NCBI GenBank assembly: GCA_964593285.1
Contig: CAZQHZ010000002.1
Location: 16,858-68,638, forward strand
Length of the DNA: 51,781 nt
Direction of reading: 5' to 3'
Origin: an uncultured Methanosarcinales archaeon
Lineage (GTDB): Archaea; Nanobdellota; Nanobdellia; Woesearchaeales; DSVV01
Part shown: positions 6 through 34,351 of the stretch, piece by piece
Layout: every line of letters starts with the position of its first letter
Position numbering within the stretch: position 1 is the stretch's first letter
Notes under the pieces: model-generated
Database searches by the model: none
What the model saw: the letters and a program-made list of their open reading frames with translations, nothing else
Told to the model about the DNA's origin: nothing
Made by a program: the position numbers and the translations under genes

Positions 6-845
6 ATGATAATTAAAAATAAAAGAAAAGGTGCAGTAACTTTTGAAATGGTGCTTATTTTATTAGCTTTATTTATTTTATTTATTTTTATCATGTATGT
101 TTTTTCTAAATTTTCAATAACTAATAAAATTTCTGAAGCAGGTTGTAATTTAGGTCTTGATAAAATTTTTGTTAAAATGTGTGGAGAAAAAGATTCTATT
201 TTTATTGTTTCAAAAGATGGTTCTATAAGATTACCTAATTCAAATTTAGATTTATCTAAAATTTCTATTGAATTTAATCCAAAGGATAATGTTCCTAATG
301 AATATGGGATGAAAGGTAAGGTTTATTTAATTGATGTTTATAATGCTGCAAAAAATGCAAATGTTAATTATTATCTTCTTTTAGCTATTGGTGCACATGA
401 AAGTGGAGATTTTCAATATAATAAAAATTTAAAAGGAAGTGGTGCTCATGGTGTCATGCAGATGTTTCCTTTGGCAACTATTGATGTTTATGATAAACAT
501 AAAACAACTTTAAAACAATTGTTTCCTGAAAAGATGAAAGATATAAATAATGAAAATGATGTTGAAAATAAAATTTATAATGATTATTTTTTAAGTTGGA
601 ATAGGGAAGATGTAAAAATGCAACTTCAGTTTGGTGCTTATTATATTAGGATTATTGAGGATTATTTAAAATATTATAAAAAACCATATGATGTTCGTAC
701 AGTAATTCAAGCATATCATGATGGTATTGGACATATAACAAAAGATGGAAACTCTATTATTTGCGAAAAAAAACCAGAATCATGTAGTGCATCAAATAAT
801 TATTATGCAAATGTAATGGAAAAATATGATGGTTTAATTACTTAA
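6..845 (+). CDS. Pilin-like (class III) signal peptide protein with a C-terminal lytic transglycosylase (SLT/GH23-like) domain
   Basis: The N-terminus MIIKNKRKG|AVTFEMVLILLALFILF has a basic stretch, then Gly, then a hydrophobic helix with Glu at +5. Later AIGAHESGDF, GAHGVMQMFPLAT and AYHDG match the SLT catalytic E-S, GxxGLMQ and AYNAG motifs. Confidence 0.75.
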   Translation: MIIKNKRKGAVTFEMVLILLALFILFIFIMYVFSKFSITNKISEAGCNLGLDKIFVKMCGEKDSIFIVSKDGSIRLPNSNLDLSKISIEFNPKDNVPNEYGMKGKVYLIDVYNAAKNANVNYYLLLAIGAHESGDFQYNKNLKGSGAHGVMQMFPLATIDVYDKHKTTLKQLFPEKMKDINNENDVENKIYNDYFLSWNREDVKMQLQFGAYYIRIIEDYLKYYKKPYDVRTVIQAYHDGIGHITKDGNSIICEKKPESCSASNNYYANVMEKYDGLIT

Positions 846-864
846 AATTTATGAGGTGCTTTAG

Positions 865-1149
865 ATGTTAAATAAAAAAGGTATTGAAATTGGTTTGAAT
901 ACAATTGTTGTTGCTGTAATTGCTCTTGCTGTAATGCTAGTTGTTTTATTAGTTTTTACTGGTAGATTTGGTATATTTTCAGGTCAATTACAAGAATGTG
1001 AAAATATTGGCGGTGTTGAAATGACTGGAAGTGAATGTGATGGCAGGGTTGTTGAAATAAGTGATGGGAAAGAATGTTGCGTTAGTTTAAAATCAAAATC
1101 TCCTGAACTTGAAGAAAATAGTGGTTCATCAGATTCAATTCAAACCTAA
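865..1149 (+). CDS. Small type IV pilin-like protein (class III signal peptide) with a Cys-rich C-terminal domain
   Basis: The N-terminus is MLNKKG|IEIGLNTIVVAVIALAVMLVVLLVF. AGGTG lies 7 nt upstream of the ATG. The ectodomain has 4 Cys ending in CCVS. It is a tandem paralogue of 1173..1433. Confidence 0.7.
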   Translation: MLNKKGIEIGLNTIVVAVIALAVMLVVLLVFTGRFGIFSGQLQECENIGGVEMTGSECDGRVVEISDGKECCVSLKSKSPELEENSGSSDSIQT

Positions 1150-1172
1150 CGTAAATTTATGAGGTGCTTTAA

Positions 1173-1433
1173 ATGTTAAATAAAAAAGGTATTGAAATTG
1201 GTTTGAATACGATTGTTGTTGCTGTAATTGCTCTTGCAGTTTTACTTGTTGTTTTACTTGTGTTTACTGGTAGATTTGGTTTATTTTCAGATCAATTACA
1301 AAAATGTGAAAATTTACTTGGAGAGCCAAAAGATAAAGATGATTGTGAAGAGGAAAATGGAAGAGTTGCATTTGTTATTGATGATAATGAAGTTTGCTGC
1401 GTTAGTAAAAGTTCAATAGCACCGGGTGATTAG
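1173..1433 (+). CDS. Small type IV pilin-like protein, tandem paralogue
   Basis: Its RBS and first ~47 codons are near-identical to 865..1149. The C-terminus is diverged but keeps the C...C...CCVS pattern. Confidence 0.7.
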   Translation: MLNKKGIEIGLNTIVVAVIALAVLLVVLLVFTGRFGLFSDQLQKCENLLGEPKDKDDCEEENGRVAFVIDDNEVCCVSKSSIAPGD

Positions 1434-1436
1434 TAA

Positions 1437-1700
1437 ATGTTTTTAAAGAAAAAAGGAGAAGTTAATTATTTATTGGTTTCAATTGTTATTGCATTAGTTT
1501 TTTTATTAAGTTATGTTATTTTAACAACTGATATTGTATCTAATGTTTTTGGTGGAGTTGAAGTTGTTGAAAATGAAGCTATTTTAAAAGCTAAATGTAT
1601 GACAAATGATGCAACACTTGATACAACAGGTAATGGATTTCGAGATGATGTTATTACAGAAAACGGAAAAGAATATAATTGTGCTAAATTAAATGAATAA
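1437..1700 (+). CDS. Small pilin-like protein with a class III-type signal
   Basis: The N-terminus is MFLKKKG|EVNYLLVSIVIALVFLL, followed by a short 2-Cys ectodomain. It starts 4 nt after the previous stop. Confidence 0.55.
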   Translation: MFLKKKGEVNYLLVSIVIALVFLLSYVILTTDIVSNVFGGVEVVENEAILKAKCMTNDATLDTTGNGFRDDVITENGKEYNCAKLNE

Positions 1701-1703
1701 AAA

Positions 1704-2321
1704 ATGAAAAAAAAGGCTTCATTAAATATTAGTTTAGAAACACTGGTTGGAATAATTATTGCAGTTATTGCAATTGTTTTTATTTATTCTATTATTTCTA
1801 GTTTAATTTTAACATTTACTAAAGAAGATAGATTACAAATGGATAATTTTTATAATTTGAGAAATTTACTTGAAAATCAACAAACAGATGTTAATTTTTT
1901 TGGATTTGTTAAAAAAGATTATGTTATTTTGGGATTTAATAAATATCAACGTACATTAACTGGAGAATGTCAAAATTATTGGTTTGGAACAAAACTATTA
2001 AGTACAAAAGTAAAATCTGCAGATTTTTCTATTCGACGTGATTATTTAAAATGCCCTTTAGAGTTTCCTTGTATTTGTTTATGTAAATTAGAATTAAATT
2101 CACATACTGCAGATTGTTTTGATCATGGAATTTGTTTACCATTAACTTCTGAAAATACTAAGGATATTAAATTTAGTGGATTTAAAGGAAAGAAAGGAAA
2201 ATATAAAGAAGAAAGTTGTAATATTCCATTAATTTATACTGGTGGGGATTATGTTGTAAATTATTGTTTGGTTGAATCGGATGATAAAATTATTTTTGAA
2301 CCAGGTGACTGTGAGTCATAA
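1704..2321 (+). CDS. Larger pilin-like/secreted Cys-rich protein
   Basis: The N-terminus is MKKKA|SLNISLETLVGIIIAVIAIVFIY, followed by a ~170-aa domain with many Cys (CPLEFPCICLCK, CFDHGICLP). It is the last gene of the co-directional array. Confidence 0.55.
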   Translation: MKKKASLNISLETLVGIIIAVIAIVFIYSIISSLILTFTKEDRLQMDNFYNLRNLLENQQTDVNFFGFVKKDYVILGFNKYQRTLTGECQNYWFGTKLLSTKVKSADFSIRRDYLKCPLEFPCICLCKLELNSHTADCFDHGICLPLTSENTKDIKFSGFKGKKGKYKEESCNIPLIYTGGDYVVNYCLVESDDKIIFEPGDCES

Positions 2322-2405: not shown

Positions 2406-2633
2406 ATGGCAAGAACTAAAAAAGTTGCAAAAGTAGGTATTAAAAAAGAAGAAGGATATCTTTATTTTGTTGATAAAGATGGAGATATTTCTCAAGTTTT
2501 AATGAATAGGGGCGGAAAAAAGAAGAAAAAAACAGCAAAAGCACCAGTTAAAAAAAAAACTGCTAAAAAAGTAGCAAAGAAAAAGCCAGTGAAAAAAAAA
2601 GTAGTTAAAAAAAAACCTACTAGAAAAAGATAA
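2406..2633 (+). CDS. Small basic protein with a lysine-rich histone H1-like tail (putative nucleic-acid binding)
   Basis: A ~35-aa N-terminal module (EEGYLYFVDKDGDISQV) is followed by a KKKKKTAKAPVKKKTAKKVAKKKPVKKKVVKKKPTRKR tail. GGGGTGA lies upstream of the ATG. Confidence 0.5.
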   Translation: MARTKKVAKVGIKKEEGYLYFVDKDGDISQVLMNRGGKKKKKTAKAPVKKKTAKKVAKKKPVKKKVVKKKPTRKR

Positions 2634-2668: not shown

Positions 2669-4996
2669 TTAATTATTTTTTTTAATAATTCTATAATTAT
2701 TTTTAATGTCTTTTATGCTATATCCTTTTTGTTCTATTTTTTCTCGTAATTTGTCTGATAATTCCCAGTTTTTTTCATTTCTTGCAATTAACCTTTCTTC
2801 TGCTAAATCTATTATTTCTTTTGGTATTTGTTCTTCTTTATAATCAAGGATTCCTAAAATTGTATCTAACTTATTTAATTCGTCTTTAATTTTATTTGCA
2901 TTTTCTTTTGAAATTCGATTTTCATCAATTAATTTATTTATTTTTTTTATAAATTCAAACAATGATGCTATTGCTTCTGGTGTGTTTAAATCATCATCCA
3001 TTGCTTTGATGAAATGTTCATTTAATTCATTTATTAAAATGTCAATTCCTTTATTATTATTTTTATTATTATTTTCAATATCATTTAGTCTTAAGATAAA
3101 TTCATTTAATCTATTAATTGTGTTTTCTGCAGCGTTTAAACTTTTGATTGTTAAATTTAATTGTTGTCTGTAATGAGTTGAGATTAATAAATATCTTATT
3201 GCTTTTTCACTAAAACCTTTTTTTAATAAATCTCTGATTGTATAAAAATTACCAAGGCTTTTAGACATTTTTTTACCATCAACTATTAAATGATTACAAT
3301 GTATCCAGTAATTTACAAAGGTTTTTTTAGTTAGTGCTTCAGATTGTGCAACTTCATTTTGGTGATGTGGGAATACTAAGTCAATTCCTCCTGTGTGAAT
3401 GTCAATACATTCTCCTAGATATTTCATAGACATTGTAGAGCATTCTAAATGCCATCCTGGCCTGCCCTTTCCAATTTCAGTTTCCCAAAATACATCTTTG
3501 TCTTCTTCTTTTTTATAGGCTTTCCATAATACAAAATCTGATGCATTTTCTTTTTCATAATTATCATGGCAAATTCTTGCACCTTTTTTTAAATTATTTA
3601 AGTTAATATTTGCCATTTCACCATATTTTTTGAATTTAGAAATATCAAAATAAATGCTACCATCTTCACTTTTATAAGCATAACCTTTATCTAAAAGTTT
3701 TTTTACAAATTCTACCATTTCATTAATTGTATCTGTTGCTTTTGGAATAAATTCTGGTTTTAAAATATTTAAGGATTTAAAATCTTTAAAAAATTCATTT
3801 GTATAAAAGTTTGTAAATTCTGTTAGTGTTTTATTTTCATTTATTGAGCCTTTTATTGTTTTATCATCAACATCTGTTATATTCATTACATGTATTACTT
3901 CATATCCTTTAAATAAAAGATATCTTTTTAGTAAATCTGAAAAAATATAGCTTCTAAAGTTTCCAATGTGGGCATAATTATATACTGTTGGACCACATGT
4001 ATACATTTTAACTTTGTTTTTTTCTAATGTTATAAATTCTTGTTTTTTTCTAGTTAAAGTATTAAATAGTTTAAAGCTCATTTTATCACCTTCTATTAAT
4101 TTGGTACTTAAATATTTTTCTGCTCTATCTGGAAATATTATTACTATGTTTAATTCTTTATCTTTACATCCTTTATTAAATTCTTTTGCTTTTTTTAATG
4201 CGCCAAAAAGCGCGGCACCTGAGCTCATTCCAACAAATATTCCCTCAATTTTCATTATTTGTCGTGCATAATTGTATGCATCTTCATCAATTACTGTAAT
4301 TTTTTCATCATATAAATTTTCATCATAAATTCCAGGGACAATTGCTTCATTCATATTTTTTAGACCTTGTATTTTATGACCAATTGTTGGCTCAACTGCA
4401 ATTGTTTTTATTTTTTTATTGTATTCTTTTAATTTTTTAGAGCATCCAATAATTGTTCCAGAAGTTCCAAGTGCACATATAAACATGTCAATGTTTGGTA
4501 AGTCTTTTATTATTTCATTTGCTGTTGTTTTATAATGTGCTAGGTAGTTATTTTTATTATTGAATTGATCTGGCATGAAATATTTTTCTGGATGTTTTTT
4601 AACTAAGTATTTACATAATTTAATAGCACCATCTGTTCCTTCATCTTTTGGGGAAAGAATTATTTTTGCACCTAAAGCTTCTAATACTTTTCGTCTTTCA
4701 ATACTTACAGCTTCACTCATTACAATTTCAACATTATATCCTAATACTGCGCCAACCATAGCAATACCAATTCCAGTATTTCCAGATGTTGGTTCAATTA
4801 TCGTTTTGTCTTTTGTTAATTTTTTTTCATTTATTGCATTATTTATCATTTCAAGTGCAATTCTATCTTTTATGCTCCCACCAGGATTTAGTCCTTCTAA
4901 TTTTGCATAAATATTGACATTTTTGTATGGATTTATTTTGTTTAATTTTATTAAAGGAGTATTTCCAATCATTTCAATTATATTATTATATATCAT
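2669..4996 (-). CDS. cysK-cysS: Fusion ORF: cysteine synthase (CysK/CysM family, PLP-dependent) plus cysteinyl-tRNA synthetase
   Basis: Residues 1-304 carry GNTPL, SIKDR (PLP Lys), TSGNTG, GTSGT and YLST. Residues 305-775 begin MSFKLFNTLTRKKQEF and carry HIGN (the HIGH motif) and KMSKS. Confidence 0.85.
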   Translation of the reverse strand: MIYNNIIEMIGNTPLIKLNKINPYKNVNIYAKLEGLNPGGSIKDRIALEMINNAINEKKLTKDKTIIEPTSGNTGIGIAMVGAVLGYNVEIVMSEAVSIERRKVLEALGAKIILSPKDEGTDGAIKLCKYLVKKHPEKYFMPDQFNNKNNYLAHYKTTANEIIKDLPNIDMFICALGTSGTIIGCSKKLKEYNKKIKTIAVEPTIGHKIQGLKNMNEAIVPGIYDENLYDEKITVIDEDAYNYARQIMKIEGIFVGMSSGAALFGALKKAKEFNKGCKDKELNIVIIFPDRAEKYLSTKLIEGDKMSFKLFNTLTRKKQEFITLEKNKVKMYTCGPTVYNYAHIGNFRSYIFSDLLKRYLLFKGYEVIHVMNITDVDDKTIKGSINENKTLTEFTNFYTNEFFKDFKSLNILKPEFIPKATDTINEMVEFVKKLLDKGYAYKSEDGSIYFDISKFKKYGEMANINLNNLKKGARICHDNYEKENASDFVLWKAYKKEEDKDVFWETEIGKGRPGWHLECSTMSMKYLGECIDIHTGGIDLVFPHHQNEVAQSEALTKKTFVNYWIHCNHLIVDGKKMSKSLGNFYTIRDLLKKGFSEKAIRYLLISTHYRQQLNLTIKSLNAAENTINRLNEFILRLNDIENNNKNNNKGIDILINELNEHFIKAMDDDLNTPEAIASLFEFIKKINKLIDENRISKENANKIKDELNKLDTILGILDYKEEQIPKEIIDLAEERLIARNEKNWELSDKLREKIEQKGYSIKDIKNNYRIIKKNN

Positions 4997-8514: not shown

Positions 8515-8898
8515 ATGGCAAAAAAAGAATTTATGTATTGTGGAAAAACTCTTGATGAACTTCAAAAAATAAGTATAGAAGAATTTGCAAAATATGTAGA
8601 TTCAAGAAAAAGAAGAACATTGCTTAGAGGAAATACAGACGAACAGAAAAGGTTTTTTGCTAAATTAAATAAAAAAAAGGATAATATTAAAACACATTGT
8701 AGAGATATTGTTATTGTTCCTTTAATGGTTGGAAAAACAATCTTTGTACATAAAGGAAAAGAATATCAACAATTATTAATTCAACCAGAAATGATTGGTC
8801 ATTGTCTTGGTGAATTTGCATTTACACGAAAAAGGATATTGCATTCATCTCCTGGAGTTGGAGCTACAAAATCAAGTTCAAATGTTTCAGTTAAATAA
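8515..8898 (+). CDS. rps19: 30S ribosomal protein S19 (uS19)
   Basis: The sequence contains the IFVHKGKEY...MIGHCLGEFAFTRK motif and follows operon order. Confidence 0.95.
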   Translation: MAKKEFMYCGKTLDELQKISIEEFAKYVDSRKRRTLLRGNTDEQKRFFAKLNKKKDNIKTHCRDIVIVPLMVGKTIFVHKGKEYQQLLIQPEMIGHCLGEFAFTRKRILHSSPGVGATKSSSNVSVK

Positions 8899-8906
8899 GT
8901 AAAAAA

Positions 8907-9653
8907 ATGGCAAAACACAAATATTCGTTTCAAAAATATGATGAAGAAAGGATGGCTAGAGTTGTAGGTATTTCAATGCCTGCATCAACAAAGCAAAGTA
9001 TTGAAATTTCAGCACATCTTCGAGGAAAAAAATTAAATGTTGCAAAAAAAATATTGACTGATTCAATAGCTTTAATTAAACCAATACCATTTAGAAGATT
9101 TACTGATGGAGTTGGGCATAAAAAAGGCATGAATATACAAGGAAGGTTTGCATGCAAGGCATGTGGTGTTTTTTTAAAACTTTTAAATTCATGCGAATCT
9201 AATGCAAAAAATAAAGGTCTTGATACTGAAAATTTAGTAATTGCACATATTAATGCACATAAAGCATCTCAGCAGTGGCATTATGGAAGAATTAGAAGAA
9301 TTAGGTTTAAAAAAACACATATTGAAATTGTTTTACAAGAAAAAAAGTTAGAGAAAAAACAACAAGGGAAAAAAGAAGACAAAAAGGTAAAAGCAACACA
9401 AGAAGAAAAATCAATAAAAGAAGCAGACAATAAAAAAGAAAATAAAAAAGAAAATAAAAAAGAAAATAAAAAAGAAAATATTCAATTAAATGAAAAAAAT
9501 AAAAATACTCAAAAAACTGCTACGGAAGTTAAAAATACAAAGAATAATGTTAATAAAACTGATAATTTAAATATTCAAAAAGATAAAAATATTAATTCAG
9601 ACGATAATAAAAAGAAAGTTGATGAAGAAAAAAATCAAAAAAATAATGCTTGA
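8907..9653 (+). CDS. rpl22: 50S ribosomal protein L22 (uL22) with a ~100-aa K/N/E-rich C-terminal extension
   Basis: The core ARVVGISMPASTKQSIEISAHLRGKKL ... THIEIVL is followed by a low-complexity tail that includes (KKEN)x4. Confidence 0.92.
   Translation: MAKHKYSFQKYDEERMARVVGISMPASTKQSIEISAHLRGKKLNVAKKILTDSIALIKPIPFRRFTDGVGHKKGMNIQGRFACKACGVFLKLLNSCESNAKNKGLDTENLVIAHINAHKASQQWHYGRIRRIRFKKTHIEIVLQEKKLEKKQQGKKEDKKVKATQEEKSIKEADNKKENKKENKKENKKENIQLNEKNKNTQKTATEVKNTKNNVNKTDNLNIQKDKNINSDDNKKKVDEEKNQKNNA
9429..9480 (+). repeat. 12-nt tandem repeat (aataaaaaagaa, 4 copies plus a partial) inside rpl22
   Basis: The direct tandem repeat was read from the sequence. It encodes NKKENKKENKKENKKEN. 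Confidence 0.9.
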
Positions 9654-9667
9654 GGATTTATAAAAAA

Positions 9668-10447
9668 ATGATTCATAAAAAAATTGTTCAGCAAAAAATA
9701 AAAGAATTTGAAATTCAAAGTTATGTAAAAGATGGTCTTAAAGGAGTTGGTTTGAGTAAAACAAAATTACAAATAACTCCTCTTGGAGAAAAGATTATTG
9801 TTAGTGCATCAAGACCTGGATTAATTGTTGGACGAAAGGGGCAATCAATAAAAAAACTTACAAGTTTATTAAAAAAAAGATTTAATTTAGACAATCCACA
9901 AATTGAAATTGATGAAGTAAAAGATATTCGTCAAGATGCAAATATTGTTGCTGAAAATATTGCTACATATTTGGAAAAATTTGGTGCTGGAAGGTTTAAA
10001 AGTATTGGTCATAAATCTCTTGAAAATTCAATTAATGGTGGAGCACTTGGAATTGAGATTTTAATTTCAGGAAAAGTTCCAAGTTCACGAGCGAAAAGAT
10101 GGAGATTTTATAAAGGATATTTAAAAAAATGCGGGGACGTTGCAATAAATGGTGTTAAAAAAGCATATTATGTTGCAAATTTGAAAACAGGCGCTATTGG
10201 AATTCAAGTAAGAATAATGAGTTCAGATATTAAGCTACCTGATGATGTTCAAATTTTAGATGAACCACAAACTATTATTGAAGAATTAGACAATGATGAA
10301 AATAAAAATAATTCAAAAGAAGAATCTAAAAAAACAGATGATTTAAAAAAAAAAGAACAAAAAAAAACAAAAAAAACTGTGAAAAAATCAAAAAAAAAGG
10401 TCACAAAAAAAGTGTCTAAAAAAGCAGTTTTAGAAAATAAAAAATAA
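9668..10447 (+). CDS. rps3: 30S ribosomal protein S3 (uS3) with a K-rich C-terminal tail
   Basis: A KH domain is present (LIVGRKGQSIKKLT). The ATG at 9668 is preferred over the TTG at 9650. The tail is KKKEQKKTKKTVKKSKKKVTKKVSKK. Confidence 0.93.
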   Translation: MIHKKIVQQKIKEFEIQSYVKDGLKGVGLSKTKLQITPLGEKIIVSASRPGLIVGRKGQSIKKLTSLLKKRFNLDNPQIEIDEVKDIRQDANIVAENIATYLEKFGAGRFKSIGHKSLENSINGGALGIEILISGKVPSSRAKRWRFYKGYLKKCGDVAINGVKKAYYVANLKTGAIGIQVRIMSSDIKLPDDVQILDEPQTIIEELDNDENKNNSKEESKKTDDLKKKEQKKTKKTVKKSKKKVTKKVSKKAVLENKK

Positions 10448-10453
10448 ATTAAA

Positions 10454-10657
10454 ATGAAAATAAATGATATTCGGGCTTTATCAGATAAAGACTTAAAATT
10501 AAAATTAGATGAACTTTCGTTAGAATTAGTTAAATTGAATTCCCAAGCAGCAACAAAAACACAAATGAAAAGTCCTGGGAAAATCAAGCAACTAAAATTA
10601 GTAAGATCACGGTTATTGACTGTGTTCAAGGAGAGGGGAGTTTTAAAGCATGAGTGA
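10454..10657 (+). CDS. rpl29: 50S ribosomal protein L29 (uL29)
   Basis: The sequence contains IRALSDKDLKLKLDELSLELVKL and follows operon order. Confidence 0.92.
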   Translation: MKINDIRALSDKDLKLKLDELSLELVKLNSQAATKTQMKSPGKIKQLKLVRSRLLTVFKERGVLKHE

Positions 10658-10988
10658 AATATGCACAACTTGTGGACTACCAAAAGAGCTTTGTGTTTGT
10701 GAAGAAATCGCAAAAGAAGCTCAAAAAATTGAAGTTTATAATATAAAAAAAAAATTTGGTAAGGTATATACAGTAATTGAAGGAATGAATTCAAAAGAAA
10801 TAGATATTAAAGATATGACTAAAAAATTAAAAAACAAATTTGCGTGTGGTGGAACTGTAAAGGATGGAAAAATTGAATTGCAGGGAAATCATAAACAAAA
10901 TGTCCGAGAGACATTAGTAAATTTTGGTTTTGCACCAGAATCAATTAATATACAAGAAGACAAATTCAAAAAATCATTTAGAAGATGA
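10650..10988 (+). CDS. sui1: Translation initiation factor aSUI1/eIF1
   Basis: The sequence contains CTTCGLPKELCVCEEIAKE and KFACGGTV. It occupies the L29-SUI1-Rpp29-S17 position known from methanogens. Confidence 0.9.
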   Translation: MSEICTTCGLPKELCVCEEIAKEAQKIEVYNIKKKFGKVYTVIEGMNSKEIDIKDMTKKLKNKFACGGTVKDGKIELQGNHKQNVRETLVNFGFAPESINIQEDKFKKSFRR

Positions 10989-11230
10989 ATTATTTAAAAA
11001 AAGAATATATTGGAAAAAAAGTAAAAATAGAAAATTCAAAAAATAAAAATTACATGGGCATTAATGGAATTGTGATTGATGAAACAAAAAACACTTTCAA
11101 AATAAAAGAAAACAATAAAAAAAGAATTATTTTAAAAAAAGGTACGGAATTTATGTTTGTTGATAATAAGATAAAAATTGATGGTTTAAAAATTTTAAAA
11201 AAACCACAAGATAGAATTAAAATTAGGTGA
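10985..11230 (+). CDS. rnp1: RNase P protein component 1 (Rpp29/Pop4)
   Basis: The sequence contains IGKKVKIENSKNKNYMGINGIVIDETKNTFKIK. It sits in the conserved position before S17. Confidence 0.85.
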   Translation: MNYLKKEYIGKKVKIENSKNKNYMGINGIVIDETKNTFKIKENNKKRIILKKGTEFMFVDNKIKIDGLKILKKPQDRIKIR

Positions 11231-11236
11231 ATTATA

Positions 11237-11575
11237 TTGATTAAAAAAACAAAAAACATTGGGGTTTTAATAAATGCTCCAAAAGAAGAATGTGTTAAAG
11301 ATACCCATTGTCCATTTCATGGACAACAAAATGTTAGAGGTAGATGTTTTGTTGGAAAAGTAATTAAATCAAAAATTCCAAAATGTGTAACTGTTGAATG
11401 GACAGGACAAGCTTATGATAAAAAATATGAAAGATATTATAAAACTAGAACTAAAGTTAAAGCACACAACCCTGTTTGTATATCTGCAAAAGAAGGGGAT
11501 ATTGTAAAAATTATGGAAACTAGAAAAATTAGCAAAACTAAGTGTTTTGTTGTTATTGAAAAATTAGGTGTATAA
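11237..11575 (+). CDS. rps17: 30S ribosomal protein S17 (uS17)
   Basis: The sequence contains CPFHGQQNVRGRCFVGKVIKSKIPKCVTVEW. The start is TTG, 6 nt after AGGTGA. Confidence 0.92.
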   Translation: MIKKTKNIGVLINAPKEECVKDTHCPFHGQQNVRGRCFVGKVIKSKIPKCVTVEWTGQAYDKKYERYYKTRTKVKAHNPVCISAKEGDIVKIMETRKISKTKCFVVIEKLGV

Positions 11576-11577
11576 AT

Positions 11578-11979
11578 ATGCAATCTGTCAAATCAAGTGT
11601 TACAAAAAGTCTCCCAGTTGGAAGTATGGTTGATGTTTGTGATAATAGTGGTGCTAAAGTTATTAAAATTACTAATGTAAGAAAAGTAAATACAGTAAAG
11701 GGAAAACTTGCTAGTGCTGGTGTTGGAGATTTGATTATGGGCAGTGTAAAAAAAGGCAAGCCAGATATGAAAAAAAAAGTAGTACTTGCTGTTGTTGTAA
11801 GACAAAAAAAAGAATATAGAAGGGTTAATGGTAAAAGAATTAAGTTTGAAGATAATGCAGTTGTTGTTGTAAAAGACGATAAAGGAAATCCACAAGGAAC
11901 AGCAATTAAAGGTGTTGTTTCAAAAGAATCTACAGTAAGGTGGCCTGCAATTTCAAAACTTGCAAATATTGTTGTATAA
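11578..11979 (+). CDS. rpl14: 50S ribosomal protein L14 (uL14)
   Basis: The sequence contains VCDNSGAKVIKI and FEDNAVVVV. Confidence 0.95.
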   Translation: MQSVKSSVTKSLPVGSMVDVCDNSGAKVIKITNVRKVNTVKGKLASAGVGDLIMGSVKKGKPDMKKKVVLAVVVRQKKEYRRVNGKRIKFEDNAVVVVKDDKGNPQGTAIKGVVSKESTVRWPAISKLANIVV

Positions 11980-12008
11980 AAATAAATAAAAGTGAATGGT
12001 TATAAAAA

Positions 12009-12569
12009 ATGAAATCAAATTTTTCAAAAGATTGGATAAGTTCAAAGAAAGCAAATAAGCAAAGAAAATATCTTTATAATGCTTCAATACATATTAGAGG
12101 AAAGATTTTATCTTCAATGCTTTCAAAAGAGCTTAAGAAAAAATATAATAAAAATTCAATTAGGCCTAGAAAAAATGATAAGGTTAAAATCATGAGAGGT
12201 CAGTTTAAAGGAAAAACTGGAAAAATTGAAAAAGTTGATATTAAAAATTATAAATTAATTGTTGATTGTTGTGAAATAATAAAAAAAGATGGTACAAAAA
12301 CAATTTATCCAATTCATTATTCAAATGTAATGATTACTGAACTTTATTTAGATGATAAAAAAAGATTTAGTAAAATTAATTCCTTTAGAAAAGATGCAAA
12401 AAAAGAAGATAAATTTGAAAAAAAAGATGAAAAAAAGACAGAACAAAAAACAGTTGAAAAAATAAAAGAAACAAAAGAAAGAAAAGACACAAAAGAAATA
12501 AAAGAAACAAAAGAAAATAATTCATCAAATGAAAATGATAAAAAAACTGAAAATACTAAAAAAAAATAA
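12009..12569 (+). CDS. rpl24: 50S ribosomal protein L24 (uL24) with a K/E-rich C-terminal extension
   Basis: The KOW core is KNDKVKIMRGQFKGKTGKIEKVD. The tail is KKEDKFEKKDEKKTEQK and onward. Confidence 0.92.
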   Translation: MKSNFSKDWISSKKANKQRKYLYNASIHIRGKILSSMLSKELKKKYNKNSIRPRKNDKVKIMRGQFKGKTGKIEKVDIKNYKLIVDCCEIIKKDGTKTIYPIHYSNVMITELYLDDKKRFSKINSFRKDAKKEDKFEKKDEKKTEQKTVEKIKETKERKDTKEIKETKENNSSNENDKKTENTKKK

Positions 12570-12631
12570 TTTGAATAAAAATTTGAAATTAGATATATGA
12601 TATAAAAAAACATTTAGGTGTAATAAAAAAA

Positions 12632-13333
12632 ATGGTTAAAAATCACATTAAAAGAATAGCAGCACCAAGTACTTGGAATATTAAAAGAAAAACTACTAAA
12701 TTTATTATAAAACCAAGACAATGTGGGTTTTCTTTTAAGTTATCAATTCCTTTATTGGTTTTGTTTAGAGATTATCTTAAAAAAGTAAAAACAGCAAAGG
12801 AGTTAAAATATGTTTTAACTAATAAAGAAGTTTTATTAAATGGGAAAAAAATTAAATCATATAAGGCGTCTGTTGGTCTTATGGATGTTGTTTCAATTCC
12901 AGAAACTAGTTCGTATTATAGAATTTTATTAAGTACAAAAGGAAAATTATTTGCTTTTGAAACTACTTTAGATGATTCAAAATTATTGCCTTTATGGATA
13001 AAAAATAAAACTGTTGTTAAAGGTGGCAAAATTCAACTTAATTTTTCAAATGGTTTTGTTTTAAATGTTGATAAAGATGAATATAAAACTGGTGATGTTA
13101 TTTTATATGATTATTTAGCTAAAAAAATAGTTGATAAATTTTCATTACAAAAAGATGCTTTTGTGTTTTTTATAAGTGGAAAACATAAAGGGGAGTCTGC
13201 AATTGTCAAAGAGGTTAATGAAGAAAATTTTGTTTTTAAATTAGGTGAAGAAATAGTAAATGTAGATAAAAAAAATTCAAAATTAAATGCATTTGTATTA
13301 GGCAAAAAAAAATCTTCAATAAAAATTAATTGA
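12632..13333 (+). CDS. rps4e: 30S ribosomal protein S4e (eS4)
   Basis: The sequence contains HIKRIAAPSTWNIKRK and follows operon order. Confidence 0.93.
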   Translation: MVKNHIKRIAAPSTWNIKRKTTKFIIKPRQCGFSFKLSIPLLVLFRDYLKKVKTAKELKYVLTNKEVLLNGKKIKSYKASVGLMDVVSIPETSSYYRILLSTKGKLFAFETTLDDSKLLPLWIKNKTVVKGGKIQLNFSNGFVLNVDKDEYKTGDVILYDYLAKKIVDKFSLQKDAFVFFISGKHKGESAIVKEVNEENFVFKLGEEIVNVDKKNSKLNAFVLGKKKSSIKIN

Positions 13334-13338
13334 TTAAA

Positions 13339-13851
13339 ATGGTAAATAAAATGAAAGAAATCAGAATTGAAAAGCTTACATTAAATGTAGGTGCAGGGAA
13401 AGATTCTGATAAGCTTGAAAAAGGAATTAAACTTATTGAATATATTACAGGGCTAAAACCTGTTTCAACAAAAACTTATAAAAGAATTCCTACATGGGGA
13501 CTAAGACCTGGTCTTCCAATTGGTTGTAAAATAACAATAAGAAACGATAATAAAAAAAATTTAATAAAAAAGTTTATAGAAGCAATAGATAATAAGATAA
13601 AAAGAAATAATTTTGACAATAATGGTAATATTTCCTTTGGAATACATGAATATATAAATATTCCTGGAATTAAATATAATCCGGATATTGGAATTATGGG
13701 TTTTCAGATTTCAATAACACTTTCAAGACCTGGATATAGAATTTTAAAAAGAAGACTAAAAAGTAAAAAAATTCCAATAAAACATAGAATTAGTAAAGAT
13801 GAAGCAATTGAATTCATGAAAAAAGAATTTAATGTGGAGATTGTTGATTAA
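13339..13851 (+). CDS. rpl5: 50S ribosomal protein L5 (uL5)
   Basis: The sequence contains [18 protein letters not shown]. The start is ambiguous among 13330 TTG, 13339 ATG and 13351 ATG. Confidence 0.92.
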
Positions 13852-13852
13852 A

Positions 13853-14083
13853 ATGACTTATAGTGATTATAAAAAAGAGTTTAAATGTTTAAAAACAAAA
13901 CCGCATAAGCTTGCTAAATATAAAAAACATAATGCACCAAATAAAAGAAGCACTGGTGTATCCCTTAAAAGATGTAGGCGATGTGGAAGAATTAGGGGCC
14001 ATATTAGCAAATATGGTTTAAATTATTGTAGGCAATGTTTTAGAGAAATTGCAACAAAACTTGGTTTTAAAAAATATTATTAG
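13853..14083 (+). CDS. rps14: 30S ribosomal protein S14 (uS14), zinc-binding type
   Basis: The sequence contains the [25 protein letters not shown] CxxC...CxxC motif. The ATG at 13853 lies just after the L5 stop. Confidence 0.92.
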
Positions 14084-14104
14084 AAATGAAACGGTGATTA
14101 AAAA

Positions 14105-14497
14105 ATGACATTAAATAATCCTTTGGCATCAGCATTATCACATACTTTAAATTGTGATAAAATTGGAAGAAGTGAAGTATTAATTAAACCTATTTCAACA
14201 ACAATAAAAAATGTTTATAAAATTTTAAACGAAGAATTATATGTTGGTAGTTTTGATATTGTTGAAGATGGTAGAGGAGATATGTTGAAAGTTAATTTAA
14301 TTGGTAAGATAAATAAATGTGGTGTTGTCTCACCTAAATTTGCAGTAAAAAAAGATAATTTTGAAAAATTTGAAAAAAGATATTTACCTGCATCTGATTT
14401 TGGAATACTAATCGTATCAACTTCAAAAGGAATTATGATTCATAAAAAAGCTAAAGAACTAGGAATTGGGGGTAAGCTTATTGCTTATTGTTATTAA
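14105..14497 (+). CDS. rps8: 30S ribosomal protein S8 (uS8)
   Basis: The sequence contains NPLASALSHTLNCDKIG and ILIVSTSKGIM. Confidence 0.94.
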   Translation: MTLNNPLASALSHTLNCDKIGRSEVLIKPISTTIKNVYKILNEELYVGSFDIVEDGRGDMLKVNLIGKINKCGVVSPKFAVKKDNFEKFEKRYLPASDFGILIVSTSKGIMIHKKAKELGIGGKLIAYCY

Positions 14498-14499
14498 AA

Positions 14500-15048
14500 A
14501 TGAAAATTTTGGATTTTAGAGAAGAAATTGAATTGCCAGAAGGTATTGTTGCAGTTAAAGATGGTAACATGTTAACTGTAAAAACTGAAAAAAACGAAAT
14601 TCAAAAAAAATTTGTTTCCCCTATTTTAGATTTAAAAGTAGAAAATAATAAGATTGTTTTAACAACTAATAAGTTGACAAAAAAAGAAAAGGCATTGGTT
14701 GGAACATTTAGAGCACATATAAATAATATGATAAAAGGTCTTTTAGAAGGACACCATTATAAACTTAAAATTTGTTCAGGACATTTTCCAATGAATGTGT
14801 CATATAATAACAATGTTTTATCAATAAAAAATTTTATTGGAGAAAAAATTCCAAGAACTTTGACTGTAAATGAAAAAGTTAATTTAAAACTTGATGGTGA
14901 TTTTATAACTATAGAATCTGTTGATAAAGAATTAGCAGGTCAAACAGCAGGTTCAATTGAAAAATTGACAAAAAGAACAAAATTTGATAAACGAATATTT
15001 CAGGATGGTATTTATATCGTTGAAAAAAATGATAAAAAAATAGAGTGA
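14500..15048 (+). CDS. rpl6: 50S ribosomal protein L6 (uL6)
   Basis: The sequence contains GTFRAHINNMIKGLLEGHHYKLKI. The ATG at 14500 is preferred over the TTG at 14488. Confidence 0.93.
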   Translation: MKILDFREEIELPEGIVAVKDGNMLTVKTEKNEIQKKFVSPILDLKVENNKIVLTTNKLTKKEKALVGTFRAHINNMIKGLLEGHHYKLKICSGHFPMNVSYNNNVLSIKNFIGEKIPRTLTVNEKVNLKLDGDFITIESVDKELAGQTAGSIEKLTKRTKFDKRIFQDGIYIVEKNDKKIE

Positions 15049-15053
15049 TAATA

Positions 15054-15692
15054 ATGAATAAAGCTGTTGAAATTAGAAATGCATTGAAAAAGAAAAAGCC
15101 AAATTTTAGAAGGCAAGACTCTCATAAAAAAAGTAAACTTTCATCTTCTTGGAGAAAACCAAAGGGCTCAGATAGTAAGATGCGAGTTAGTAAAAGAGGA
15201 TATTGTAGATCTGTTTCAAAAGGCTATAAATCACCTAAATTAGCAAGGGGCCTTACTAGAGATGGTTATAAAATTGTTAATGTTTTTAAAATTAAAGATT
15301 TAGAAAATGTTGATAATAAAATTTGTGCAATCAATATTTCATCAACAGTTGGATTAAGAAAAAAAATTGATATTTTAAAAGAAGCATTGAAGTTAAAACT
15401 AAGTGTATTAAATTATAAAAATGCAGAAGAAAAACTTTCAAGTTTTGAAGAATTAATTATTCAAAATAAAGAAATTAAAAATAAATTATCTAAAGAAAAA
15501 GAAATTAAACAAAAAGAAAAAGAAAAAGTTGCTGTAAAAAAGGAAGAAGAAAAAAAACAAAAAGAAAATGAAGAAAAACCACAAGGTAATAAGAAGTCAT
15601 TAGATGATATAGCAAAAGACGAAAAAGAAAAAAAACAAGAAGAGAAAAAAGAAAAAGATAAGTTATTGATTAATAAAGATAAAAATATTTAA
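15054..15692 (+). CDS. rpl32e: 50S ribosomal protein L32e (eL32) with a K/E-rich C-terminal extension
   Basis: The sequence contains KPNFRRQDSHKK and WRKPKGSDSKMR. The ATG at 15054 is preferred over the GTG at 15045. Confidence 0.92.
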   Translation: MNKAVEIRNALKKKKPNFRRQDSHKKSKLSSSWRKPKGSDSKMRVSKRGYCRSVSKGYKSPKLARGLTRDGYKIVNVFKIKDLENVDNKICAINISSTVGLRKKIDILKEALKLKLSVLNYKNAEEKLSSFEELIIQNKEIKNKLSKEKEIKQKEKEKVAVKKEEEKKQKENEEKPQGNKKSLDDIAKDEKEKKQEEKKEKDKLLINKDKNI

Positions 15693-18733: not shown

Positions 18734-18878
18734 ATATTAAATTTTATTAAAATTTATTATATTATATTTTTTTAATACAATCTTATTTATTACAAAGTAA
18801 ATTAAAAATAAAAAAATATATAAATTGTTTTTTAATTTCAATTTATAATAAAAAGTTTATTTGAAAAAAGGTTTAAAA

Positions 18879-20258
18879 ATGTCATTGTTAAATGTATTAA
18901 TAAATAATTTACCATCTGTTTCTTCACCTACACAAAAAAAATTACCTTTTAAAGAAAAAGCTAAATGGACAATAATTATGCTTGTTGCTTTTTTTATTTT
19001 AGGTATTGTACCATTATTTGGACTTGGTGCATCATTTTTAGAACAATTTGAATATTTATCAATGATTTTAGCTGCTGAATTTGGTTCACTTGTATCTTTA
19101 GGTATAGGACCAATTGTTACAGCATCTATTGTTTTACAATTATTAAATGGTTCTGGAATTTGGAAATTTGATTTGACAAGTGCTGAAGGGAAAAGTTTTT
19201 TTCAAGGTGTTCAAAAATTACTTGCTATATTTTTTGTTATATTTGAATCTTTTATTTTTGTAATGCTTGGGGCACTTGGTGCTGAATCACCTAATTTAAG
19301 ATGGGTTTTAATATTTCAATTAATTTTAGGTGGCTTTTTAATAATTTTAATGGATGAAGTTGTTCAAAAGTGGGGTATTGGTTCTGGAATTAGTTTATTT
19401 ATTGCAGGTGGTGTTTCTAAAGAAATTTTTGTAAAAGCTTTTTCTTGGATAAAATTAGAAGGAAGTGATTATTCTGTTGGTGCTGTAATTAGATTTTTTG
19501 AAGCAATTTTTGCTGCGGATTTAGCAATTGCAGGTCAATCTTTAGGTTTAATTATTTCAACTTTAGTAATTTTTGCAATAGCAGTATATTTACAGGCAAT
19601 GAAAGTTGAAATACCTTTGTCTTTTGGCAGAGTTAGGGGACATGGTGTTAGATGGCCTTTAAATTTTTTATATACTAGCGTACTTCCAGTAATTTTGGTT
19701 GCAGCTTTATTTGCTAATTTACAGTTATTAGCACAGATGCTTGTAAGTAAAGGATATGGTTTTTTAGGAAATCCTGAAAATAATACTGGTTTTGTGTCAT
19801 GGCTTCATGCACCAGGTGATCATACAGGATTAATTGGTTTAATTATTCAAAGTGGTGGTTTTTTTAATATTGGTATAACCCCTTATTTACAATCTATTAC
19901 TTATATGCTTGCAATGATAATTGGTTGTGTAGTTTTTTCATATTTTTGGGTTCAAACAGCAGGAATGGATGCAAAATCTCAAGCTAAAAATATGATGTCT
20001 TCGGGCTTACAAATTCCTGGATTTAGAAAAGATCAAAGGGTTTTAGAAAGATTACTTAAACGGTATATTGGCCCTTTAACAATAATGGGTGGTATTGCTA
20101 TTGGTTTTATTGCAAGTTTTGCAGATATTTTGGGTGCATTATCAATGGGTACTGGTATTTTGCTTGCTGTTATGATTATTTATAAGATTTATGAAGAAAT
20201 TGCAAAACAACATATGATGGATATGCATCCTGCAATGCGTAAATTTATGGAAAAATAA
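18879..20258 (+). CDS. secY: Protein translocase subunit SecY
   Basis: It has 10 TM segments, LPFKEKAKWTIIML and GSGISLFI. It sits in the conserved position after L15. The ATG at 18879 is preferred over the TTG at 18861. Confidence 0.93.
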   Translation: MSLLNVLINNLPSVSSPTQKKLPFKEKAKWTIIMLVAFFILGIVPLFGLGASFLEQFEYLSMILAAEFGSLVSLGIGPIVTASIVLQLLNGSGIWKFDLTSAEGKSFFQGVQKLLAIFFVIFESFIFVMLGALGAESPNLRWVLIFQLILGGFLIILMDEVVQKWGIGSGISLFIAGGVSKEIFVKAFSWIKLEGSDYSVGAVIRFFEAIFAADLAIAGQSLGLIISTLVIFAIAVYLQAMKVEIPLSFGRVRGHGVRWPLNFLYTSVLPVILVAALFANLQLLAQMLVSKGYGFLGNPENNTGFVSWLHAPGDHTGLIGLIIQSGGFFNIGITPYLQSITYMLAMIIGCVVFSYFWVQTAGMDAKSQAKNMMSSGLQIPGFRKDQRVLERLLKRYIGPLTIMGGIAIGFIASFADILGALSMGTGILLAVMIIYKIYEEIAKQHMMDMHPAMRKFMEK

Positions 20259-20297: not shown

Positions 20298-21125
20298 ATG
20301 GTATTAACAATTTTTAATTCAATTTTAGATCCTATTTTTTCTCCTTTATTAGTATTAGAGCCATTATTATCTTTAGTTATTATTTCTTTTTTAATAGCAC
20401 TACTTACAACTTTAGCTTATAAAAAATTTACCGATCAAAGTTTGATGAAAGATTTAAAAGACGAAATTAAAACACTTCAAAAACAGATGAAAGAATTAAA
20501 AGATAAACCTGATAAAATGCTTAAAGTTCAAAAAAAAGTTATGGATACTAATATGAAATATATGATGCATTCATTAAAGCCTATGTTTTTTACGTTTATT
20601 CCAATTATTCTTATCTTTGGTTGGCTACATTCTCACATGGCATATTATCCTATTGTTGAAGATCAAGAATTTACAGTAACTATTTTTTTTGAAGAAAATT
20701 ATGATGATTTAGTTTCTTTAGAAAAATTACCAAATGATGTGTTTTTAGTTAAAGGTGATTTAAATCAAAAAATTGCAGATTATAATACAGAGTGGGTTTT
20801 AACTGGAAAACAGGGGGATTATAATTTAAAGTTTAATTTTAAAGATGAAATATTTGAAAAAATTATAAAAATAGCTAAAGATGAAAAAAAACGAGAATAT
20901 GCATCTCCTGTTATTTCACAAAAAGATAATCAAATGTTTTCTGAATTTGGTATTGAAAGGGTAGAAGTTAATAATCAAAGAGTTAGACCTTTAAAAGATG
21001 CACCATTTGTTGGTGGTATTTTAGGTTCTATTCCATGGGTTGGTAATTTTGGGTGGCTTGGTACATATATTTTACTTTCAATTTTTTTTAGTATAACTCT
21101 TAGAAAATTGTTAAAAGTTTATTAG
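20298..21125 (+). CDS. DUF106 / EMC3-TMCO1-like membrane protein (archaeal Oxa1/YidC-superfamily homologue) with an extra soluble insert
   Basis: TM1 is followed by the coiled-coil DLKDEIKTLQKQMKELKDKPDKMLKVQKKVMDTNMKYMMHSLKPMFFTFIPI. The gene neighbours secY, as MJ0480 does in methanogens. Confidence 0.6.
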   Translation: MVLTIFNSILDPIFSPLLVLEPLLSLVIISFLIALLTTLAYKKFTDQSLMKDLKDEIKTLQKQMKELKDKPDKMLKVQKKVMDTNMKYMMHSLKPMFFTFIPIILIFGWLHSHMAYYPIVEDQEFTVTIFFEENYDDLVSLEKLPNDVFLVKGDLNQKIADYNTEWVLTGKQGDYNLKFNFKDEIFEKIIKIAKDEKKREYASPVISQKDNQMFSEFGIERVEVNNQRVRPLKDAPFVGGILGSIPWVGNFGWLGTYILLSIFFSITLRKLLKVY

Positions 21126-33937: not shown

Positions 33938-34348
33938 TTAAACATTTCTAAGCATTTTAATAACTGCTTCAACAGTTCCTCTTCCAAATTTATCAATTCT
34001 TTTCATTGCATCCATTCTAGTCATTTTAGGACCGCTAATTCCAAGACCTACAGGTTTTGTATATTCAAGTGATAAATCCATTATTTTTCTTGCAGCATTT
34101 TGTGCAACAATTATATCATGGTCAGTATCGCCTTGTACAACTGCACCTAAAGTTACAATACCATCAATTTCTTTGTTTATTAACATTTTTTTAACAACAA
34201 AAGGTATTTCAAAACTTCCAGGAACATTTATTATTTTAACAACTTTTGCTCCTAAAAATTCAACATGTGTTTTTGCAACTTCAAGCATTGCATTTGTAAT
34301 ATCTTTGTATGTATCGCTAACAACAATTCCTATTTTTTCATTTGACAT
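33938..34348 (-). CDS. ribH: 6,7-dimethyl-8-ribityllumazine synthase
   Basis: The sequence contains VPGSFEIPFVVKKM and LGAVVQGDTDHDIIV. Confidence 0.88.
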   Translation of the reverse strand: MSNEKIGIVVSDTYKDITNAMLEVAKTHVEFLGAKVVKIINVPGSFEIPFVVKKMLINKEIDGIVTLGAVVQGDTDHDIIVAQNAARKIMDLSLEYTKPVGLGISGPKMTRMDAMKRIDKFGRGTVEAVIKMLRNV

Positions 34349-34351
34349 TTT

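Follow-up and report, generated by a model that had tools for sequence, protein, structure and literature searches.

We examined a 51,781-nucleotide window (the whole stretch of DNA analysed here, from contig CAZQHZ010000002.1 of assembly GCA_964593285.1) that opens with five consecutive open reading frames (ORFs) on the plus strand. All five encode proteins with a prepilin-like N-terminus, and the first, ORF1, also carries a lytic transglycosylase domain of the GH23/SLT type. The window has a GC content of about 25% and carries genes for GatD/GatE, an archaeal ribosomal-protein operon with SUI1 and RNase P p29, SecY, the proteasome, the exosome and SBDS, and NCBI labels the organism 'Candidatus Woesearchaeota archaeon'. 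This gene set and label agree with the archaeal origin proposed in a first-pass annotation, made from the sequence alone, and place the DNA in a low-GC DPANN archaeon. The features discussed below are collected in Table 1.

Table 1. Features of the prepilin-like locus, the two scaffolds found with hydrolase domains and the giant proteins of related clusters. Coordinates are those of the window unless a related locus (L number) is named; a slash marks the putative cleavage site.
Feature	Coordinates	Strand	Description
ORF1	6..845	+	279 aa, a form also called by NCBI; prepilin-like N-terminus, short Cys-containing linker, C-terminal GH23/SLT domain
ORF1 basic stretch, MIIKNKRKG	6..32	+	Putative prepilin-peptidase site after Gly9 (KG/AVTFE, Glu at +5)
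ORF1 hydrophobic helix	33..107	+	Residues ~10-34; Kyte-Doolittle 19-residue mean 3.21
ORF1 SLT catalytic domain	330..842	+	Residues ~109-279, including the conserved Cys253/Cys260 pair; placed by alignment, MltC profile match and AlphaFold2 (AF2) model
ORF1 Glu132-Ser133 codons	399..404	+	Predicted catalytic E-S motif; invariant in 13/13 family members; aligned on T-E-S-S-F of MltC
ORF2	865..1149	+	94 aa; small, Cys-rich, prepilin-like (KKG/IEIGLNTIVVAVIAL...FTGRFG...CC)
ORF3	1173..1433	+	86 aa; tandem paralogue of ORF2
ORF4	1437..1700	+	87 aa; prepilin-like N-terminus (KKKG/EVNYLLVSIVIAL)
ORF5	1704..2321	+	205 aa; prepilin-like N-terminus (KKKA/SLNISLETLVG); cluster family F3
Scaffold F0			Usual form 320-420 aa, without hydrolase; variants with a C-terminal SLT domain of the window's subfamily or an internal canonical SLT domain (L082, L071)
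Scaffold F2			Usual form 125-165 aa, pilin-like; variants with Amidase_3 (L010, L011, L076) or Amidase_2 (L088, E = 3.4e-21)
Giant Cys-rich proteins	L022 1823-7444; L029 1787-7513; L041 393-6236; L046 481-6903; L064 480-6809; L082 483-7673		1,873-2,396 aa, 78-118 Cys

Each of the five proteins starts with a short lysine- and arginine-rich stretch that ends in [KR][GA] and is followed directly by a hydrophobic segment (best 19-residue Kyte-Doolittle mean 2.85-3.42). Such an N-terminus is absent from every other ORF of the window, in which N-terminal helices look like those of Sec or lipoprotein signals or of polytopic proteins. The ORFs and N-termini listed in the first-pass annotation are exact in coordinates and sequence, and the Glu that it placed at position +5 of ORF1 is present if cleavage occurs after Gly9. 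Its description of ORF2 to ORF5 as four small Cys-rich proteins fits ORF2, ORF3 and ORF5, which have 4, 4 and 10 cysteines, better than ORF4, which has 2. ORF2 and ORF3 share 68% amino-acid identity; at the nucleotide level their first 120 coding bases are 91% identical and the remainder 52%. The mature part of ORF4 had no detectable relatives in a mature-domain search.

The gaps between the five genes are 19, 23, 3 and 3 nt, so that they look like a single operon. The operon does not begin with ORF1, as had been thought. A public contig from the same organism (L001, GCA_046542125.1) reaches 802 nt upstream of the window sequence and carries a further gene of at least 269 codons, cut by the contig end, whose stop overlaps the ORF1 start (ATGA). 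Profile comparison matched the product of this upstream gene to no cluster family. We considered it as a split-off N-terminal module of the F0 scaffold and rejected the idea, as it did not match the F0 N-module profile. An exact-match scan of metagenomes for DNA upstream of window position 1 recovered nothing, and for the upstream protein the same truncated NCBI entry is the sole public copy.

Three short-read contigs (L002-L004) begin inside the ORF2/ORF3 region (865-1433), which fits assembly breaks induced by the repeat. Independent assemblies also stop repeatedly at or just upstream of such clusters, as seen for the starts of L001, L006, L010 and L015 and for window position 1; repeats or strain-level hypervariability of surface-protein genes may be the cause.

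Profile scores and a structural model indicate that ORF1 carries a genuine, very divergent GH23/SLT domain, with predicted transglycosylase activity. The Pfam SLT model (PF01464) matches residues 114-246 (full-protein score 23.9 bits, domain score 25.7 bits), above its gathering cut-off of 21.3. An exhaustive search with phmmer, covering 1.84 billion representative proteins, yielded 14 relatives (E = 6e-28 to 8e-4), mostly of 440-850 aa and with the SLT domain at the C-terminus, and word-indexed homology searches with ORF1, the upstream fragment or the family alignment returned only the query's own entries. In that alignment (A1, 13 SLT domains of the ORF1 family) the residues E-S (Glu132-Ser133), A-H-G-x-x-Q (147-152), Y-H-D-G (237-240) and a distal Tyr266, the signatures of family-1 lytic transglycosylases, are invariant; in ORF1 itself the motifs read H-E-S (131-133), A-H-G-V-M-Q-M (147-153) and A-Y-H-D-G (236-240), the last with H-D in place of the N-A of the bacterial enzymes. 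The A1 profile matches E. coli MltC (E = 1.7e-6) and places E-S on its T-E-S-S-F motif, and 11 of the 13 members match the Pfam SLT model individually (best E = 6.2e-10). The SLT/GH23 assignment of the first-pass annotation therefore stands, with a score above the cut-off and a catalytic Glu present in every family member.

The AF2 model built from A1 has a predicted local distance difference test (pLDDT) score of 89.5 and a predicted template modelling (TM) score of 0.89, and agrees with the all-alpha fold of goose-type lysozyme. Its best Foldseek matches in the PDB are all GH23 enzymes (P. aeruginosa Slt and MltF, phage phiKZ gp144, E. coli MltE and MltC), with a probability of 1.0 and query TM-scores of 0.5-0.59. 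A single-sequence AF2 model of the whole of ORF1 was unusable overall (pLDDT 41), with a helix at residues 13-47 and a pLDDT of 86-87 at residues 11-30. PDB phmmer matches of full-length ORF1 to tau and to the SGNH protein PatB were driven by composition and were discarded after the profile match to MltC. The Cys253/Cys260 pair is kept in the closest relatives; together with the basic N-terminus preceding a single helix, it fits an extracellular location of the domain. With a signal, a linker of ~65 residues, the SLT domain and no F0 module, ORF1 represents the minimal form. One family member, P0004 (850 aa; L013, region 8764-15530), has a long and seemingly multi-pass N-terminal region that is not prepilin-like; its gene context is also different, as it lies downstream of a 403-aa protein of the KRG/Q type and upstream of three paralogous lipoprotein-like genes (306-325 aa).

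The prepilin-like N-termini extend well beyond the window. Seven of the longer SLT relatives likewise start with K/R-G/A and a helix, and in the window plus six related clusters [KR][GA] stands at the helix boundary in 54 of the 63 cluster proteins with an N-terminal helix (86%). When the basic stretches of the same 63 proteins were shuffled 2000 times, 26 +/- 3.6 had the motif (~41%; maximum 38), and it occurred in 3 of 18 non-cluster proteins with N-terminal helices from the same loci (17%). At +1 the cluster proteins most often have Gln (16 cases), a residue typical of this position in EppA-type archaeal prepilins; Glu and Asp come next. Homologues of ORF2 and ORF3 keep a nearly fixed N-terminal helix and the F-T-G-R-F motif across genomes of differing GC content, a pattern that is usual in the evolution of pilin subunits. 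These comparisons mark the N-termini as a conserved, non-random feature of putative pilin identity.

We next describe the clusters to which these proteins belong. In the loci of SLT relatives (L006/L007, L009, L010, L015, L011 and L012, of which L011 is from a Nanoarchaeota and L012 from a Woesearchaeota metagenome-assembled genome) the SLT gene forms the 3' end of a run of 6-14 co-directional genes, nearly all of which share the same type of N-terminus, and in several of them RPA, YdjM and RadA follow the cluster. Full-length ORF4 and ORF5 and the ORF1 N-terminus drifted on the helix as jackhmmer seeds (133-274 matches), and profiles of mature domains were used instead. Comparison of mature domains gives a conserved family order: small Cys-rich pilin, F1, F3, F2, F4/F9, F10/12/14 and F0, the SLT carrier. 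ORF2 and ORF3 belong to the small-pilin family, with homologues in L010, L012 and L011 (E = 1e-5 to 7e-11) and in L015. A mature-only F3 profile from 28 loci gives the mature part of ORF5 a score of 24.6 bits and aligns the conserved C-x-C-L-C, and ORF5 also has a weak direct match to L006_4085. The order at the window (upstream gene, SLT, two small pilins, ORF4, F3) is permuted relative to the canonical one, and families F1, F2 and F4 are not found in the window.

The small-pilin family occurs at no fewer than 128 confirmed metagenome loci, of which 80 were kept for analysis (GC content 27-58%), and the clusters hold up to ~20 consecutive prepilin-like genes. In gene maps of the long loci the cluster often opens with a giant Cys-rich protein; then come, in this order, four conserved prepilin-like genes, one to three small pilins and about ten more prepilin-like genes. 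The giant opening protein has ~1,700-2,400 aa and 60-118 cysteines; the one from L029 contains bacterial TSP3 repeats and weak Ig-like matches in a domain scan, and we regard these proteins as candidate adhesins. One metagenome cluster (L068) terminates at the RPA-YdjM-RadA block. The SLT subfamily of the window occurs in none of the 80 metagenome loci, and SLT-bearing clusters are a minority subtype. Judged by family content and order, the window locus reads as a compact, rearranged version of a multi-prepilin cluster that is widespread in Woesearchaeota and Nanoarchaeota.

These comparisons also bear on the idea that the locus is the remnant of a virus or other mobile element with a lysis or entry module, which we rate as the least probable of the explanations weighed here. 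The phage virion transglycosylase phiKZ gp144 does have the top query TM-score (0.59) among the structural matches listed, and assemblies often break at these clusters. However, the SLT domain has no tblastn match in 50,697 phage records, the composition of the locus is not shifted relative to the flanking ribosomal-protein operon, the synteny with RPA-YdjM-RadA is stable in at least five divergent genomes, and no integrase, capsid or terminase genes were seen.

We then consider the enzymatic domains carried by cluster proteins. In 127 larger prepilin-like proteins encoded at the 80 metagenome loci, all catalytic Pfam domains recognised at E ≤ 1e-4 are murein hydrolases: SLT in three, Peptidase_M15_3 in two, VanY in two, and Peptidase_M15, Amidase_2 and Amidase_3 in one each. 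The other domain matches in these proteins are mostly of the adhesion type (VWA, fn3, PKD). Two scaffolds whose usual forms lack a hydrolase, F0 and F2, have acquired such domains in some lineages (Table 1). The internal SLT domain of F0 is canonical (Pfam E = 6.5e-17 in L082 and 2.4e-13 in L071); it scores just 8-9 bits against the profile of the window-type SLT domain and is located elsewhere in the protein, which suggests that the two arose by separate fusion events. The first-pass annotation had proposed that ORF1 acts on the wall of another organism, and this idea gains strength from the related clusters, where the same scaffolds bear Amidase_3, Amidase_2 and a second SLT type and where M15/VanY domains occur on larger cluster proteins. 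The recurrent accretion of murein-specific enzymes is the strongest argument that the cluster acts on bacterial walls.

A further observation concerns two SLT proteins of 647-657 aa (L011 4840-6813 and L009 1104-3047), in which a middle region resembles VanY/M15 (SAYRTYEQQ, H-x-x-G-K-S-V). One of the 64 cluster proteins has a weak VanY match (E = 0.03). If the resemblance holds, two murein hydrolase activities would reside on one polypeptide.

Bacterial genomes commonly encode SLT enzymes alongside trans-envelope machines, and those linked to appendage systems, such as VirB1, FlgJ and EtgA, open the producer's own sacculus. The locus described here resembles these systems in the linkage of an SLT gene to a putative surface appendage system and differs in that the producer is an archaeon without a sacculus; the target of the SLT domain would therefore be foreign. 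A role in remodelling the archaeon's own envelope (a murein-like or pseudomurein polymer) for the passage of a surface structure, comparable to that of VirB1, FlgJ and EtgA, would agree with the co-encoding of hydrolases and a putative surface-structure cluster, but we consider it very improbable. Mur-type wall synthesis genes are absent from the window and from the related loci examined, and SLT, Amidase_2/3 and M15 domains are specific for bacterial murein chemistry. In addition, a hydrolase is dispensable for assembly, given that most such clusters lack one, and these archaea are taken to be without murein in published analyses (PMC8204110).

We propose, with a probability of roughly 55%, that the cluster encodes a surface or filament complex of the prepilin type, in which the subunit with the SLT domain cuts the murein of bacteria on contact. 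The proposal starts from the SLT fold and motifs, the conservation of the N-terminal motif, the cluster membership and the recurrent grafting of hydrolases, all of which are directly supported. ORF1 would be an extracellular family-1 (GH23/SLT) lytic transglycosylase, kept at the cell surface by its prepilin-type N-terminus and encoded in one operon with ORF2 to ORF5 and at least one upstream gene. The cluster proteins would insert into the membrane with the basic N-terminus facing the cell interior. We infer that a prepilin peptidase, encoded elsewhere, would cleave after [KR][GA], and that type IV filament machinery of the CpaF/TadC type, also encoded elsewhere, would assemble the proteins through their hydrophobic N-terminal helices into a short filament or a surface complex like a pseudopilus. 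The bulk subunit would come from the ORF2/3 family of small, Cys-rich proteins, with ORF2 as the candidate major subunit, and the larger members, including the SLT protein, would be minor or tip subunits. Upon contact with a bacterium, the presumed target, Glu132 of the SLT domain would cut the bonds between N-acetylmuramic acid and N-acetylglucosamine, leading to local opening of the murein sacculus; sibling subunits that carry amidases or M15 peptidases could contribute to this opening in sister lineages.

Several results weigh against this proposal. No curated model of a pilin, an archaellin or a class III signal in Pfam or NCBIfam matches the five ORFs (E ≤ 1) or the 64 cluster proteins (E ≤ 0.1). 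The match of TadF to ORF1 residues 3-43 reaches only 19.3 bits, below the cut-off of 27.3, and the single Flp1_like match among the cluster proteins (E = 0.0023) also lies below its cut-off. In many cluster proteins the helix begins 4-9 polar residues beyond [KR][GA], an arrangement that is unusual for pilins. The strict FlaFind-type site of Szabo and colleagues (2007) is reportedly [KR][GA][ALIFQMVED][ILMVTAS]; in this form it fits ORF1 (KGAV) and ORF4 (KGEV) and not ORF2 and ORF3 (KGIE) or ORF5 (KASL). The bacterial type IV pilin pattern (PilD substrate, G/F(M)xxxE with an N-methylated first residue) is not found either, as only ORF1 has Glu at +5, with Ala at +1, and ORF2 to ORF5 lack this Glu. 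The class III (prepilin-type) layout named in the first-pass annotation is statistically real and conserved in homologues, and is not matched by any curated pilin or signal model. On the side of the enzyme, the Foldseek E-values are modest (only 0.02-0.1), despite the probability of 1.0 and the uniformly GH23 top matches.

The assembly machinery is a second difficulty. Annotation of every sizeable ORF revealed no secretion ATPase, TadC/FlaJ-type platform protein or A24 peptidase in the window, as the first-pass annotation had said. ATPase, platform protein and prepilin peptidase were not found within 10 kb of any related cluster, and a T2SSE-type Walker A signature occurs in none of 95 loci (~0.8 Mb in total). 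According to a preprint, DPANN genomes lack the components of type IV pili (10.1101/2020.05.14.094862). However, two conserved CpaF/TadC loci have been described across Woesearchaeota, Pacearchaeota and Nanoarchaeota (Hamm et al. 2024; PMC11291902). In archaea, pilin genes frequently lie away from those for the ATPase and TadC, and no cognate pilins could be assigned to the nanoarchaeal ATPases (Makarova et al. 2016; PMC4858521). Of the pilin filament or surface complex suggested earlier, the prepilin-like N-termini and the cluster hold up; with no machinery in the window or near the clusters, assembly into a filament is plausible and is something that we infer.

In the main rival explanation, the cluster proteins would be plain membrane-anchored or Sec-secreted exoproteins, with ordinary signal anchors or uncleaved Sec signals, K/R-G boundaries that stem from the positive-inside rule or from a lineage trait, and an SLT domain that acts as a tethered or released hydrolase without filament or peptidase. 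The missing matches to curated pilin models, the lack of pilus machinery next to any cluster examined and the polar gap before the helix all agree with this explanation, and archaeal peptidoglycan hydrolases that kill bacteria are known to use Sec or Tat (PMC12352652). We nevertheless hold it to be clearly less likely than our proposal. It does not account well for the excess of [KR][GA] boundaries over both shuffled stretches and non-cluster controls, for the preference for Gln, Glu and Asp at +1, or for runs of 10-20 consecutive genes that include pilin-like proteins of ~85 aa best conserved in the N-terminal helix. The weak match of the ORF1 N-terminus to the pseudopilin TadF also speaks against it.

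A different question is what a murein-cutting surface complex would be used for. The same extracellular complex might serve to scavenge murein debris or dead bacteria as a source of amino sugars and amino acids, or for defence by killing bacterial competitors at a distance, instead of attacking a host. Dead bacteria have been proposed to supply Pacearchaeota with murein as a nutrient (PMC11537232), a 'vampiristic' part in recycling has been suggested for Woesearchaeota (PMC9723730), archaeal hydrolases are able to kill bacteria (PMC12352652), and the window represents a reduced genome dominated by housekeeping genes. Against such uses, every hydrolase found here sits on a membrane helix or pilin module and is not freely secreted, which favours contact-dependent action. 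The clusters also bear adhesion-type modules (VWA, fn3, PKD) and giant Cys-rich proteins, and no genes for uptake or catabolism of muropeptides lie at the locus. We therefore think scavenging or remote killing improbable and prefer cutting of bacterial murein on contact.

Compared with bacterial family-1 lytic transglycosylases (E. coli MltC, MltE and Slt70; P. aeruginosa Slt and MltF), ORF1 has the same fold and the same E-S, G-x-x-Q, A-Y-x-x-G and distal Tyr elements. It differs in being very divergent, in having A-Y-H-D-G for A-Y-N-A-G and an extra conserved (predicted) disulfide, in its murein-free archaeal host and in its prepilin-like N-terminus in place of a lipoprotein or Sec signal. 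In concept, the cluster is similar to bacterial minor-pilin/PilY1 tip complexes, type II secretion pseudopili and the TadE/TadF pseudopilins of Tad systems, with a set of low-abundance pilin-like proteins and a large non-pilin protein that prime or cap a filament; we know of no enzymatic domains of this kind on bacterial minor pilins. The N-terminus of ORF1 (G/AVTFE, Glu at +5) is weakly TadF-like, but it scores below the cut-off, lacks an N-terminal Phe and stands in an archaeal context.

The Epd-type pilus loci of methanococci are similar to the multi-prepilin cluster in several respects: they contain many consecutive class-III-like genes, a small major-pilin candidate and at least five larger 'minor pilins', as well as a very large putative adhesin and conserved cysteines, and such pilin loci may lie apart from the ATPase/TadC genes (PMC4858521). 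The cluster differs from them in that it matches no known pilin family, has no EppA, ATPase or TadC in or near it and extends to ~20 genes. It also carries murein hydrolase domains on its components; the words 'hydrolase' and 'transglycosylase' do not occur in the survey by Makarova and colleagues (PMC4858521).

SLT/GH23 enzymes of Woesearchaeota and Pacearchaeota are already established and have been read as tools against bacterial walls (PMC8204110; PMC9723730; PMC10936187; PMC11537232), and haloarchaeal peptidoglycan hydrolases with Sec or Tat signals have been shown experimentally to kill bacteria (PMC12352652). Large SLT-domain proteins of these lineages were described by Castelle et al. 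2021 (PMC8204110, citing Rinke 2013 and Castelle 2015) and Vigneron et al. 2022 (PMC9723730). They share with ORF1 the lineage, the enzyme class and the proposed binding or degradation of bacterial walls; they are described as large (up to 3000 aa) and stand-alone, whereas ORF1, with its 279 aa, is a member of a separate, divergent subfamily and its gene is part of a prepilin-like cluster. Neither 'pili' nor 'pilus' occurs in the two papers, and they do not mention pilin signals or a pilin-like cluster (PMC8204110; PMC9723730). In a literature check that was incomplete for pilin terms, we found no published link between these hydrolases and prepilin-type signals or a pilin-like cluster. The SLT enzyme class is thus already known in the lineage, and what appears to be new is the prepilin-type anchor together with the multi-prepilin cluster and its grafted hydrolases. 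Surveys of archaeal wall hydrolases that count only Sec and Tat signals (PMC12352652) would overlook export of the prepilin type.

Several other genes of the window deserve mention. Directly after the cluster, positions 2406-2633 (+) encode a small protein (75 aa) that is structured at its N-terminus (GYLYFVDKDGDI) and ends in a very Lys-rich tail; it is conserved across L001-L003, matches no family and may be a small nucleic-acid-binding protein. Next to it, at 2669-4996 (-), lies a 775-aa fusion of a PALP (cysteine synthase-like) domain to a class I cysteinyl-tRNA synthetase (tRNA-synt_1e, DALR_2), also present in L001-L003. A five-helix SpoIIM-family membrane protein (21256-22116, -) adjoins an EMC3/YidC-like insertase (20298-21125) and SecY (18861-20258), and the three form a small membrane-protein biogenesis cluster. 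A 164-aa ORF at 30130-30624 (+) has a Peptidase_S74 domain (E = 2.8e-17), which acts as an intramolecular chaperone in endosialidases and phage tail fibres, with no fibre protein attached. Two adjoining lumazine synthase (DMRL_synthase) paralogues, one of them divergent, occupy 33938-34822 (-; E = 4e-36 and 2e-11). Finally, at 36381-37788 (+) and surrounded by housekeeping genes, an AbiEii-type nucleotidyltransferase toxin (248 aa, E = 1e-29) overlaps an unannotated upstream ORF of 224 aa; the two probably form a type IV toxin-antitoxin pair.

To our knowledge, no woesearchaeote or pacearchaeote has been cultured together with a host, and published work argues for bacterial partners from the mere presence of SLT genes. 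The locus described here gives such genes a physical context, with wall cutters grafted onto members of a prepilin-like cluster and different hydrolases in different lineages, and it offers a concrete, testable model for cross-domain episymbiosis or predation. The contrast between hydrolase-bearing and hydrolase-free clusters provides a sequence marker for host type that can be read from metagenomes. More tentatively, and with clearly less confidence than we place in the model for the locus itself, we suggest that Woesearchaeota, Pacearchaeota and Nanoarchaeota share a lineage-specific organelle resembling a type IV filament, composed of ~10-20 prepilin-like proteins and a giant Cys-rich adhesin, whose minor subunits have repeatedly captured murein hydrolases for contact-dependent breaching of bacterial walls. 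If this is true, the cluster would be a genomic marker of uncultured DPANN lineages that live on bacteria rather than on archaea.

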